Below are positions 35,444 through 38,972 of a stretch of 38,972 nucleotides of DNA, piece after piece. The position numbers and the translations under genes were made by a program. Source of the DNA: a virus (taxonomy: Duplodnaviria > Caudoviricetes); the IMG/VR virus record IMGVR_UViG_3300020138_000014, positions 1-38,972 of that record. One strand, written 5' to 3'. The notes beneath the pieces were generated by a model. The model ran no database searches. It had not been told where the DNA came from and worked only from the letters and a program-made list of their open reading frames with translations. Every line of letters begins with the position of its first letter. Position 1 is the stretch's first letter.

Positions 35444-35671
35444 GTGCCGCGCGAGCAGGGCCTCCCGCTGATTCTCGCCGCCATGCGGTTCGCGCTGTGG
35501 GCGGCGCAGCGGGAAAAGCCGCCCACGTGGCGCGAGGTGCAGGGCTTCCTCGGCTGCACGTCGAACAAGGCGCGCAAGTGGCGCCGCAACTACCTCAAGG
35601 CGAAGGCCCTCCCATTCCACCCACACCCGGCGGCAACCGGCACCACCAAGCAAACGGAGACAGCACCATGA
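35444..35671 (+). CDS. Small HTH-like protein
   Basis: GGAG RBS; PTWREVQGFLGCTSNKARKWR. Confidence 0.6.
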   Translation: MPREQGLPLILAAMRFALWAAQREKPPTWREVQGFLGCTSNKARKWRRNYLKAKALPFHPHPAATGTTKQTETAP

Positions 35672-36294
35672 CCACCAACTCAGTTCCCGCCGGCTACCGC
35701 CTCGACCCGCTGGGCCGCCTCGTGCCCGAGTCGCAGATCAAGGGCATCGACCTCGCGCGCGACGAGCTCGTGCGCGAGATCGTCGGCAAGGCCCGCGAGC
35801 TGGAGCAGGCGATCGGCAAGTTCAAGCGCCAGACCTTCGACGACATCGCCGCCTTCGTCGACCTCAGCGCCGAGCGTTACGGCGCGCGCCTGGGCGGCAA
35901 GAAGGGCAACGTCAGCCTGGTGTCGTTCGACGGCCGCTACAAGGTCTTGCGCGCGATGGCCGACAACATCGTCTTCGACGAGCGCCTGCAGGCGGCCAAG
36001 GCCCTGATCGACGAGTGCCTCAAGCAGTGGAGCGAGGGCGCGCCGGCCGAGCTGCAGACCATCGTGCAGGACGCCTTCCGCGTCGACCAGGAGGGCAACA
36101 TCCGCGTGCAGCAGGTGCTCTCGCTGCGCCGCCTGGAGATCACCGACGCCCGCTGGAAGCGCGCGATGGACGCCATCGGCGACGCCATCCAGGTGACCGG
36201 CAGCCGCAGCTACCTGCGCGTCTACGAGCGCGTCGGCGATTCCGACCGCTACCAGCAGCTGGGCCTCGACCTGTCGTCGGCGGGGGGTGCGTGA
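35668..36294 (+). CDS. DUF3164 family protein
   Basis: GRLVP...GGKKGNVSLVSFDG...FDERLQAAKALIDEC. Confidence 0.88.
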   Translation: MTTNSVPAGYRLDPLGRLVPESQIKGIDLARDELVREIVGKARELEQAIGKFKRQTFDDIAAFVDLSAERYGARLGGKKGNVSLVSFDGRYKVLRAMADNIVFDERLQAAKALIDECLKQWSEGAPAELQTIVQDAFRVDQEGNIRVQQVLSLRRLEITDARWKRAMDAIGDAIQVTGSRSYLRVYERVGDSDRYQQLGLDLSSAGGA

Positions 36295-36539
36295 TGGCGG
36301 CCGCCTTCCACTTCGTGACCGTGCGTGTCCGCTTCCGCAACGGCACCTACACCTGCACGTTCCGCGGCCAGCGTGCCAGTTGCACGATATCCGCCCACGG
36401 CGCGGTGAAACGTCTGGCTGAGAAGCTCGGCTACAAGCCGGAAGCTCCGATCGAGCGCGTCGGCCAAGCCGCCGATGGCGGCGGCGAGGTCTGGAAGATC
36501 GTGGATCTGGGTGCGGGAGAAGCCCGTGGCCGCGTTTGA
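36294..36539 (+). CDS. Hypothetical protein
   Basis: GTY...RASCTISAHGAVKRLAEKL. Confidence 0.7.
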   Translation: MAAAFHFVTVRVRFRNGTYTCTFRGQRASCTISAHGAVKRLAEKLGYKPEAPIERVGQAADGGGEVWKIVDLGAGEARGRV

Positions 36540-36594
36540 GCTGATCGACAAGGTCGACCCCAGCATGGCTTGGACAGGCAAGTGCTTCACGTGA
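36526..36594 (+). pseudogene. Short ORF / probable remnant of a third cassette
   Basis: 22-aa ORF ending TGA-G-GTCTAAC, the same junction geometry as cassette A (TGA-G-GCCCAAC). Confidence 0.35.
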
Positions 36595-36595
36595 G

Positions 36596-36651
36596 GTCTA
36601 ACGCCTGAGTTAAGCCGCGCCGAAGGCGTCGGCTTGAATGAATTGTTGGGC
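36596..36651 (-). other. attC site 1 (integron cassette recombination site, 56 bp)
   Basis: Minus strand GCCCAAC-AATTCATTCAAGCCGACGCCTTCGGCGCGGCTTAACTCAGGC-GTTAGAC, very close to the aadA-type 59-base element. Confidence 0.93.
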
Positions 36652-36670
36652 AGCACACAAGGAGAACGAC

Positions 36671-36928
36671 ATGCTGAAAGCGTACCAATGCACCGACGAA
36701 GACCTGTACGCCGCCGAGAACGCAGAGCAGGCAGCCAAGCTGTGCGAGGAACAATCTGGCGAGCCGTGCGACGAGGGATACCCGCGCGAACTGGATGACG
36801 AAGAACTGGACAAGCCGCAACCGGCATTCGATGAGGATGAACGCCGCATCCCCGGCGAATACACCAGCGTGCGAGAAATGCTTGACCAGCAGACCGAACC
36901 GGGTTGGCTGGCTTGCAGTTGGTGGTGA
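36671..36928 (+). CDS. Cassette A acidic hypothetical protein
   Basis: AAGGAGA RBS; MLKAYQCTDEDLYAAENAEQA...; bounded by complementary cores GTTGGGC/GCCCAAC. Confidence 0.85.
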   Translation: MLKAYQCTDEDLYAAENAEQAAKLCEEQSGEPCDEGYPRELDDEELDKPQPAFDEDERRIPGEYTSVREMLDQQTEPGWLACSWW

Positions 36929-36929
36929 G

Positions 36930-36990
36930 GCCCAACACCCGGAGTTAAGCCGCGCCGCGAAGCGGCGTCGGATTGAATGAATTGTTAGCA
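36930..36990 (-). other. attC site 2 (61 bp)
   Basis: Minus strand TGCTAAC-AATTCATTCAATCCGACGCCGCTTCGCGGCGCGGCTTAACTCCGGGT-GTTGGGC. Confidence 0.93.
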
Positions 36991-37009
36991 CTCAAAGCGA
37001 GGTAACGAA

Positions 37010-37300
37010 ATGAGCGGGGGAAGCTTGGATTACGTCTACGGCAGGGTTGAAGACGCCGCATCGACAGTAGCTGCGCGGGCGGAGACGATGCTTCACCGCG
37101 CGTTTGCAGCCCACCTGCACAAGGTAGCCAAGGCTCTGAAAGACATGGAGTGGATGTTGTCGGGCGACAGGTCACCCGGCAGCGAGGAGCCTGCAATCCG
37201 CGCCGTGCTGCATGAGAGTGCAGAACTCGAAGCGGCGACTGAGCAGGCGCGCAAGGCGTTGGCTGACTTGAAAGCTGCATTGAGCGCTAACACGCGCTAG
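37010..37300 (+). CDS. Cassette B hypothetical protein (MSGGSLDY type)
   Basis: GAGGT RBS; MSGGSLDYVY...MEWMLSGD; reads through the core site at 37285-37291. Confidence 0.85.
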   Translation: MSGGSLDYVYGRVEDAASTVAARAETMLHRAFAAHLHKVAKALKDMEWMLSGDRSPGSEEPAIRAVLHESAELEAATEQARKALADLKAALSANTR

Positions 37301-37303
37301 GAC
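37285..37303 (-). other. Candidate attI-like primary insertion site
   Basis: Minus strand GTCCTAG-CGCGT-GTTAGCG: degenerate L box, 5-bp spacer and core, with no attC hairpin; core nearly complementary to R'' of attC2. Confidence 0.45.
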
Positions 37304-37359
37304 CCAACCCGCCGGCGTATCCATTGGATCCCTGGGCTATGCCCCACCAAGGCACCACT

Positions 37360-37914
37360 GTGAACCAGTCCCCCAACATTGCGACCCTCCGCAGCGCAGC
37401 CGAGTTGGCTGCCGACAAGCCGCACGGCGTGCGCGTGCGCTACATGGCCGGCTGCCGCTGCGATGCCTGCCGGAAGGCGAACTCGACCTACGAGAACGAG
37501 CGCCAGAAGGCAAGGCGCGCGGGCGACTGGAACGGCATCGTCCCGGCCGATCGCGCCCGCGCGCACATGCGCATGCTGTCGCGGCATGGCGTCGGCCGCC
37601 GCACGGTCCAGGCCTGCACCGACATCGCGGACACGGTGCTGCAGGACATCCGCACCGGCCGCAAGACGCACATCCGTGCCCGCACCGAACGCCTGATCCT
37701 GGCCGTCACGCGCGAGCAGGCAGCCGACCACGCCTACGTCCCGGCGGGCCGCTCCCACCAGCGCATCCGCCTGCTGCTCGAGGAGGGCTACACCGAGGCC
37801 TATCTGGCCAGGCGCCTGGGCTACGCGAACCGCTACCTGCAGTTCAACGAGCGCCGCATCACCGTGCGCAATGCCGCCCGGATCGAGCGGCTGTACCGGG
37901 AACTGACCGAATGA
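37360..37914 (+). CDS. Zn-binding/HTH phage protein
   Basis: HGVRVRYMAGCRCDACRKAN; start uncertain. Confidence 0.75.
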   Translation: MNQSPNIATLRSAAELAADKPHGVRVRYMAGCRCDACRKANSTYENERQKARRAGDWNGIVPADRARAHMRMLSRHGVGRRTVQACTDIADTVLQDIRTGRKTHIRARTERLILAVTREQAADHAYVPAGRSHQRIRLLLEEGYTEAYLARRLGYANRYLQFNERRITVRNAARIERLYRELTE

Positions 37915-38381
37915 CCCGCCGCGCCGCCAACCCCGCCCTGGTGCGCAAGCGCACCCTGGCCGCCATCCACGCCACGGCGCACCAGCTGGGCCTGGAGGAT
38001 GACGTCTACCGCGACCTGGTCGAGCGCGTCAGCGCCGAGCACGGCCCCGCCCAGCGCAGCGCCGGCAAGTGCACCCCGCGCCAGCTCAGCGCCATCGCCA
38101 ACGAGCTGCGCCGGCAGACCGGCAAGCCCGCCCAGGCGGCCGCCAGCGCCCGCGTATGGGCCGGCAAGCCGAAGGGCGTGCTCTCGCCCCAGCTGGCCAA
38201 GGTCGAAGCGCTGCTGGCCGACTCCGGCCGCGAATGGGCCTACGCCCACGCCCTGGCCAAGCGCCTGTGCGGCGGCGTCGCCCGCGTCGAATGGTGCGAC
38301 AGCCACCAGCTGTCCAAGGTCATCGCCGCCATGCAGATCGACGCCGACCGCCGCGCCCGCCGGGCCGACCCGGGGAAGTAG
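37911..38381 (+). CDS. gemA: GemA / Mu gp16 (DUF1018)
   Basis: LAAIH...LGLEDDVYRDL...KVEALL...WAY. Confidence 0.85.
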   Translation: MTRRAANPALVRKRTLAAIHATAHQLGLEDDVYRDLVERVSAEHGPAQRSAGKCTPRQLSAIANELRRQTGKPAQAAASARVWAGKPKGVLSPQLAKVEALLADSGREWAYAHALAKRLCGGVARVEWCDSHQLSKVIAAMQIDADRRARRADPGK

Positions 38382-38382
38382 C

Positions 38383-38739
38383 ATGAAGCCGATGGAAGCC
38401 CGCCGCGCCGAACTCCTGGAGCATGTGGCCGCCCGCGCGGCTGCCACGGCGGTGGACCTCGGCCTGGCGTCCGACCTGGCCGACCAGGTGGGCGCCGCCG
38501 TCGCCGACGCCCTGGCCGACGACTTCGGCGGCCAGGTCCTGTCCTTCCCCAAGGACTGTGCCTACCGCCTCTCCCAGCGCGACCGGGCCATCCTCGAAGC
38601 CCACCGCCGCGGCGCCTCGCTCGCCGAACTGGCCCACCAGTACAAGATCACCGACCGCGGCCTCCGCATGCTCCTCCGCCGAGCCGAATCCCGCGACCGC
38701 GACCTCCGCCAGCAGCAGCTGTTCGGGAATCCCCAGTAA
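38383..38739 (+). CDS. mor: Mor/C family transcription activator
   Basis: FGGQVLSFPK...RDRAI...ELAHQYKITDR. Confidence 0.88.
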   Translation: MKPMEARRAELLEHVAARAAATAVDLGLASDLADQVGAAVADALADDFGGQVLSFPKDCAYRLSQRDRAILEAHRRGASLAELAHQYKITDRGLRMLLRRAESRDRDLRQQQLFGNPQ

Positions 38740-38831: not shown

Positions 38832-38873
38832 AAATATCTCGGTGGACCCCCCTGAATATCTCACCCCGGGTCA
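38832..38873 (-). repeat. Phage end with two transposase-binding sites
   Basis: Minus strand TGACCCGGGGTGAGATATT...CCGAGATATTT; GAGATA at positions 12-17 and 34-39. Confidence 0.8.
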
Positions 38874-38972
38874 GCAGCGGCTGCCGGCGCGGCCGCGGCG
38901 TCGCCGGCGATTTCCGCCAGCAGCGCCAGCAGCGACTCGGTGTTGAACGGCCGGCCAAGGCGGAAATCGGTC

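Follow-up and report, generated by a model that had tools for sequence, protein, structure and literature searches.

Two attC cassettes between DUF3164 and gemA

The stretch of DNA analysed here (38,972 nt, hereafter the window) makes up the whole of the 39-kb virus record IMGVR_UViG_3300020138_000014, which contains genes for a transposase, a MuB-like ATPase, DUF3164, GemA, and Mor. Between the DUF3164 gene and gemA, we found two attC sites, the recombination sites of integron cassettes, and two small cassettes with one open reading frame (ORF) each (Table 1). The sites are genuine, and the units are integron-type cassettes without an integrase. A tblastn search with one integron integrase (IntI) and three phage integrases revealed no integron integrase or other tyrosine recombinase in the window at E < 0.23, and the intI gene of a complete integron is missing from it. 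The original prediction, made from the sequence of the window, had described two near-canonical attC sites with pairing cores, lower-GC units, and no tyrosine recombinase gene; all of this held, down to the exact coordinates of both sites.

We trained a covariance model (CM) on 33 attC sites taken from chromosomal integrons of the Xanthomonadaceae, with the window excluded, and ran it on the window. It recovered sites A and B, and the best score anywhere else was 11.1 bits. A position weight matrix (PWM), whose training loci were partly collected by window-derived patterns, also returned only these two sites (scores of 67 and 58), and 30 shuffles of the window gave no score of 18 or higher. 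Free-energy folding of the sites was weakly better than that of shuffles (z of -1.3 to -2.5), and no Rfam model matches them, the only Rfam match in the window being a chance match elsewhere. On the minus strand, both sites run from R'' through a 5-nt spacer, an 8-nt L'' containing an extra C, a central hairpin that carries one extra A, and a 7-nt L' to R', which follows after 6 or 7 nt; the RYYYAAC and GTTRRRY cores, the L''/L' boxes, and the 5-nt R''-L'' spacer of attC sites are present. The extra-helical bases that give such sites their strand polarity are present, and site A scores 62.6 bits on the minus strand versus 10.7 bits on the plus strand; a plus-strand reading was rejected since the CM supports the minus strand. 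Site B deviates in a T at the first R'' position, in its 7-nt L'-R' spacer, and in its L'' box (ATTCAATC), which has one mismatch to L', a G-to-T change. The two same-strand sites lie 278 bp apart and form an attC cluster that lacks an integrase (CALIN), defined in the available text of PMC4889954 as two or more attC sites that share a strand and are spaced by less than 4 kb.

Sites A and B are 87-98% identical over 43-56 nt to integron attC sites of the Xanthomonadaceae, the family of the likely host, and resemble in sequence and structure the Xanthomonadales-like attC clade that includes those of aadA1a and aadA7, as far as it is described in the accessible part of Ghaly et al. 2021 (PMC8352920). 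Very many contigs of runs X2 and X3, compared with positions 36428-37159 of the window, match the attC sites at a summed depth of ~100,000, which shows that this attC type abounds in the samples.

The end cores of cassette 1 are complementary at 7 of 7 positions, and those of cassette 2 (GTTAGCGC and GTGCTAAC) at 7 of 8, or 11 of 12 when extended. In a canonical cassette, the ORF precedes its attC and lies on the top strand of that site; here, both ORFs are antisense, and the stop codon of ORF2 sits just past the crossover. The original prediction of single-ORF units separated by attC sites was correct regarding the units; their inverted gene orientation had gone unstated. At 59.8% GC, compared with 70.3% across the phage, the array is poorer in GC than any other 700-nt stretch in the genome; the GC content at third codon positions is 0.69-0.71 in the cassettes versus 0.92-0.98 in the DUF3164 gene, orfY, and gemA. 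A consensus scan of 36200-37600 found no sigma-70 promoter, a result that cannot exclude a cassette promoter (Pc).

On the left of the array, the 5' part of a 22-codon ORF is common to a close relative up to position 36562, where contigs of runs X2 and X3 show a joint, and its 3' end (TGAG/GTCTAAC) has the same stop-plus-core ending as the cassettes at loci L192 and L195. As judged from these two ends, the ORF is probably a chimera, in which a native gene start is fused to the stump of a third inverted cassette; a pattern search with this stump gave no match. On the right, the terminal site resembles by eye an attI site of the Xanthomonadaceae, with a core, a 5-nt spacer, and an L-like box. 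Its attI PWM score is -5.1 compared to 5.5-35 for true attI sites (rank 13 among 620 anchors), and neither nhmmer nor the CM matched it. The ends of several other phage arrays have similarly low scores, so the attI profile may be too narrow. A third, decayed attC proposed by eye at 37284-37342 was seen by neither the CM nor the PWM. Elsewhere, the Xanthomonadaceae attI profile fits the array ends at L083:1653-1694 (18.9 bits, nhmmer), L286:1815-1854 (13.4 bits, nhmmer), and L254 (18.4, PWM); a host-type attI is thus retained in some phage arrays.

Table 1 Features of the cassette array and of the flanking early genes in the window. A slash marks a crossover.
Feature	Position	Strand	Description
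DUF3164 gene	35668..36294	+	Native Mu-like early gene, left landmark; PF11363, E 1e-83
orfX	36294..36539	+	Native early gene, 81 aa; phrog_16970, E 1.6e-7
22-codon ORF	36526..36594	+	Left of site A; not a whole cassette
attC A	36596..36651 (56 bp)	-	Xanthomonadales type; CM 62.6 bits, E 3e-15; crossover 36602/36601
attC A boxes	R'' 36651-36645, L'' 36639-36632, L' 36615-36609, R' 36602-36596	-	
Cassette 1	36602..36935 (334 bp)	-	attC A and inverted ORF1; cores GTTGGGC and GCCCAAC
ORF1	36671..36928	+	Acidic alpha/beta protein, 85 aa; ribosome-binding site AAGGAG; phage family without annotation
attC B	36930..36990 (61 bp)	-	CM 60.0 bits, E 2e-14; crossover 36936/36935
Cassette 2	36936..37290 (355 bp)	-	attC B and inverted ORF2
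ORF2	37010..37300	+	Helical protein, 96 aa; ribosome-binding site GAGG; phage family without annotation
Terminal core G/TTAGCGC with attI-like or decayed site	37284..37342	-	Crossover 37291/37290; promoter-distal array end
orfY	37360..37914	+	Native gene, 184 aa; phrog_1590, E 1e-23
gemA	37911-38381	+	PF06252; right landmark
mor	38383-38739	+	PF08765; right landmark

Gene orientation in viral and chromosomal arrays

The attC sites of the window read on the minus strand and ORF1 and ORF2 on the plus strand, so that in both cassettes the gene is antisense to its attC. We compared this layout between viral and chromosomal arrays. Two motif scans of viral contigs yielded 12 and 103 loci, and flanks were taken for 80 of the 103. 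Among the 95 distinct inter-attC units found by the attC motif alone, 56 were inverted, 5 forward, and 34 unclear; counted by locus, 28 of the 31 viral loci with a call were inverted, 3 were tied, and none was forward. One IntI-bearing, isolate-derived viral contig was counted apart (10 units forward and 6 unclear, n = 16). In contrast, chromosomal arrays adjoining intI (17 arrays from 20 regions, n = 192 units) contained 134 forward, 6 inverted, and 52 unclear units, and the 6 inverted calls resemble shadow frames of GC-rich DNA. As a control of the strand call, the same reading points away from intI in 17 of 17 arrays. The attC sequences are nearly the same in the viral and the chromosomal set. 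The inverted layout is the rule in viral contigs and the reverse of that in chromosomal integrons, a large contrast whose Fisher P values (9e-41 and 5e-30) exaggerate the independence of the units, which share arrays and kin. In the openly accessible literature, we found no publication on inverted phage cassettes or on attC sites in transposable phages.

Recurrence of the cassettes and state of the locus

Homologues of ORF1 were available with DNA at 34 loci. At 6 of the 29 loci examined (L096, L192, L194, L195, L203, and L205), the gene forms an inverted cassette, and at the rest it is a plain operon gene. Four core types occur among the six cassettes, and every core pairs with its partner at 6-7 of 7 positions; four of the cassettes lie beside differing phage genes, and the other two are on short contigs. 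The contexts seen are terminase-portal, helicase-integrase, Sak-SSB-xis-int, and ParB-integrase-tail fibre. The first of these (L096:3001-3264) is a late position between the terminase and portal genes, with a worn attC upstream. ORF2 homologues are bordered by an inverted attC at 7 of 80 viral loci (80 kept of 182), and here, too, many are plain operon genes. In genome G371 (locus L356), ORF2 is part of an inverted array of seven attC sites between an integrase gene and a cI-like repressor gene. The DNA of cassette 2 aligns with that of G371 and of L112 from core to core; the alignment collapses past the right core, and the neighbours differ. Both units of the window thus recur as cassettes in other phages and prophages, a point in favour of the original prediction. 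An intI gene is present elsewhere in G371 (~107 kb away) and in both metagenome-assembled genomes that contain ORF1 cassettes.

In a tree of ORF1 comprising 28 loci and the window (the near-duplicates L097-L099, L108, L109, and L193 were left out), the cassette state needs 5 changes, a number as low in 51 of 500 shuffles. Since the backbone is unresolved and a single origin is compatible with the tree, no direction between plain and cassette-borne genes can be claimed.

The last cassette of the G371 array (L358:6000-6465) has its protein in common with the viral array L082 and an end similar to the one in L284, which suggests that more cassettes are common to phages. The 43-kb viral contig L252 (1904-7292) encodes its own IntI, 46% identical to a chromosomal one, beside seven attC sites, and its first array genes read towards attI and intI.

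We considered whether the hairpins might be dead, or co-opted as attenuators of transcription or translation, with their recombination role lost everywhere. The many plain homologues of ORF1 and ORF2 and the wear at site B and at the terminal site would be in line with this. However, cores co-vary with their own cassette across phages, the extra-helical bases are kept, neighbours switch at the cores, and no terminator-like site was found in 36200-37600, which makes this the least probable of the explanations considered.

Family and fold searches assigned no function to either protein. ORF1 belongs to a family of 77 database proteins including itself (E <= 0.001), and its predicted structure (predicted local distance difference test, pLDDT, 94.7) has a fold likeness only to uncharacterised phage proteins. 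We found no Pfam, PHROG, or PADLOC family and no PDB match for it (Foldseek; VIA best Z 3.5), and an Atlas lead to YosH_C fell below our threshold. The ORF2 family also has 77 members including itself; its Atlas neighbours are all viral clusters, its model has a pLDDT of 94.5, no Pfam, PHROG, or PADLOC family was assigned, and the best viral fold search reached E 0.027. Among GenBank phages, the cassette DNA matches only the attC sites of two class 1 integron records, ORF1 has one match at 36%, and ORF2 has none. Cargo of related arrays comprises methyltransferases, a Mom-like gene, and a weak Lar-like match. By analogy with these neighbouring cassettes and from their position, ORF1 and ORF2 might, as a guess, serve early host takeover or counter-defence.

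The genome fits a B3/Mu-like transposable phage, with rve (below the cut-off, E 1e-4), AAA_22, GemA, and Mor domains, and over the early region its DNA best matches that of Stenotrophomonas phage phiSHP3 and of B3-group phages (~70%). With B3-like phages (Pseudomonas phage B3, phiSHP3) it shares the transposase, the MuB-like ATPase, DUF3164, a variable interval, gemA, and mor at the genome end; in phiSHP3 and 17 prophage loci, in contrast, the interval is filled by attC-free genes. A weak orfX homologue adjoins the DUF3164 gene in L339, and no viral relative of orfY emerged from a pattern scan. Prophages of the Xanthomonadaceae, the only family searched, encode GemA proteins with 68-70% identity (15 of 400 genomes with a match; the set is centred on a Thermomonas genome). 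The statement of the original prediction that Xanthomonadales often carry integrons is borne out by an intI above the cut-off in 99 of 151 genomes of this family. Within 38865-38972, the phage apparently reaches its end with GGGTCA near 38873, and the remaining ~99 nt resemble host DNA; X1-X3 contigs end at 38873-38874. Naming the host by this 99-nt right flank was abandoned: 111 of 150 family genomes match, nearly all weakly, the best at 81% over 89 nt. The left phage end (2072-3261) has an ABC-ATPase-like gene and small ORFs, possibly a DNA-modification module, and the second-lowest GC dip of the phage (near 3400-4100) is close by.

The original prediction had proposed that the phage lineage loads, shuffles, and sheds cassettes at this locus by means of the host IntI. 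We looked for such changes in related sequences. In contigs of runs X2 and X3, which belong to one study, positions 36562 and 37341 are linked, and any other DNA separating them measures ~720-750 nt at most. One breakpoint lies 40 nt left of the site A crossover, the other 50 nt to the right of the terminal one, and in X2-X4 no attC end is visible in the 30 letters that precede 37341. Other pieces of X2-X4 are 94-99% identical to the window, so this phage is a close relative; the DNA upstream of orfY, from 37341 on, is common to both. The one close relative thus differs from the window outside the crossovers. No precise excision joint was found among the matches listed in X1, the probable source run and hence not independent of the window, and contigs drop rare variants. 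Run X6 gave scattered pieces only.

Inverted cassettes are present at 3 of 97 Mu-like loci examined, namely 3 of 80 viral DUF3164 loci and none of 17 host-family GemA prophage loci; several loci are incomplete, and the scanners miss divergent sites. In L008 and L029 the inverted cassettes end just before gemA, and in L031 an inverted array lies downstream of DUF3164. They have DNA methyltransferase cargo and different attC types. The L008 site was missed by the CM and the PWM and is based on box complementarity and matched cores; the L031 sites were found by blastn and inspection, and this contig, in which the array is followed by tail genes, may be misassembled. Relatives of L008 (L010, L024, and L033) diverge before the core and not at it. 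L029 (8667-10430) and L031 (8343-9260) have a long attC type in common and carry DNA methyltransferase cassettes; L008 and L031 share one methyltransferase family and core type with different attC bodies.

These data bear on the possibility that the lineage is an active platform, with a terminal site that functions as attI and a host IntI that brings in, rearranges, and removes cassettes during lysogeny or transposition. The core with its 5-nt spacer and L-like box at the expected attI position, the cassette cores still matched at 7/7 and 7/8, the layout before gemA common to L008 and L029, and the frequency of intI in the likely host family speak for it. On the other hand, the terminal site scores far below true attI sites, the relative differs outside the cores, cassettes are rare at comparable loci, and the X1 matches listed contain no excision joint. 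We regard such activity as possible but rather unlikely, and cassette activity in the Mu-like lineage is doubtful, also in view of the left cassette stump and the L-box mismatch of site B. The idea of a phage-borne cassette platform gains from the three other Mu-like contigs with inverted cassettes downstream of DUF3164; its part concerning activity in the lineage is unsupported.

Alternatively, rare reverse-gene cassettes of host integrons might have been inserted by IntI at a GTT of the prophage (attG) and then at the attC so formed, and been kept only because genes in this orientation are expressed. IntI inserts at GWT sites genome-wide without strand bias according to the available text of Loot et al. 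(10.1101/2022.09.11.507474), and sites A and B closely resemble host-family integron sites. The single attC sites (SALINs) and small CALINs formed by attC x attG recombination in that text are also small arrays without an integrase and with a bare G/TT border. The window differs from them in its block ends outside the cores, in the strong phage-wide orientation bias, and in that the relative has no uninterrupted target at G/TT, a point based on one relative with the intervening DNA unseen. Moreover, ORF1 and ORF2 represent phage families that were not found in chromosomal arrays, where the six inverted calls look like shadow frames. We consider this origin improbable.

A probable phage-shared pool of inverted cassettes

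The reading we favour, with a probability of roughly 0.55, is that the window carries two inverted cassettes from a pool shared among phages, which were imported as one block and are predicted to be excisable only by a host IntI in trans. It builds on what was demonstrated, namely the site anatomy, the inverted layout, the lack of an integrase match, and the recurrence of both cassettes beside other neighbours. IntI binds the folded attC bottom strand, which fixes the orientation of a cassette relative to Pc (10.1101/2022.09.11.507474, in the part available). By recombining the folded bottom strands, which in the window correspond to the plus, coding strand, the IntI of a Xanthomonadales host would have put the array together in an earlier phage, with cassettes inserted at the G/TT core at the promoter-distal end. 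The genes would then face the insertion site, so no Pc would be needed, and they would be read within the phage early transcript. In a host integron, the same cassettes would be antisense to Pc and silent; forward cassettes of the host landing in a phage array would also be silent, which would amount to a polarity barrier. The block, consisting of the cassette stump, the two whole cassettes, and the terminal site, would later have replaced an alternative accessory module (36562-37341) by mosaic recombination. Cassette 1 would still be excisable and cassette 2 less so because of the L-box mismatch in site B; new loading is doubtful because the attI is weak. Orientation relative to replication, which alters excision rates (PMC5371416), could contribute.

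Several points weigh against this reading. ORF1 and ORF2 were found in no complete chromosomal integron (each in 1 of 400 genomes, both prophage-like), which leaves exchange with host arrays hypothetical. Some viral contigs carry their own IntI; the builder of the arrays may therefore not be the host enzyme. The block import is deduced from one relative in one study, with left anchors of 37-40 nt at 80% and the intervening DNA unseen, and either allele, that of the window or that of the relative, could be the older one. The orientation calls come from a home-made ORF-fit rule that left a third of the units unclear, and the units are not independent. Finally, a Xanthomonadales host is likely from the best matches to phiSHP3 and GemA, on which its assignment rests. 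Claims for the phage of the window are limited, as its own locus is possibly an import with some wear.

Cassettes in phages have been reported before: Qi et al. 2023 (PMC9892861) list 17 phage CALINs and found that 5 of 6 sites recombine with IntI1 in vivo. As far as their available text goes, these CALINs resemble the window in that a phage carries two or more attC sites but no intI, with single small ORFs between the sites. Methyltransferase cargo is also known from arrays related to that of the window, and the IntI1 substrates in their assays were sites of other phages. They differ in that the text examined contains no antisense-gene rule and no family moving among phages, and "Mu-like" is absent from the supplement searched. 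The difference to the Xanthomonadales-like attC clade is that chromosomal genes are forward (134 of 140 called units), whereas the genes of the window are inverted and the cargo is phage-type.

The window adds transposable phages to the carriers of attC cassettes. Sites A and B are short and near-canonical and suit existing recombination assays, and the families that occur both plain and as cassettes provide concrete pairs for the question of cassette origin. On a broader level, we tentatively envisage a mirror image of the integron economy, which is conceivable but less probable than the favoured reading. Ordinary early genes would be turned into phage-orientation cassettes, which the IntI of hosts or phages would exchange between temperate phages that are unrelated, both lambdoid-like and transposable, and strand polarity alone would keep them apart from the defence-rich forward cassettes of the host. 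The ORF1 and ORF2 families, in which plain and cassette-borne genes both have near relatives by sequence, would have been caught in the process of cassette genesis, and the DUF3164-gemA interval would be a docking site. Integrons have been viewed as bacterial tools and lately as anti-phage libraries. If true, a pool of opposite polarity with phage cargo and host-type attC sites would mean that the recombinase of integrons also serves phages in handling accessory genes of their own.
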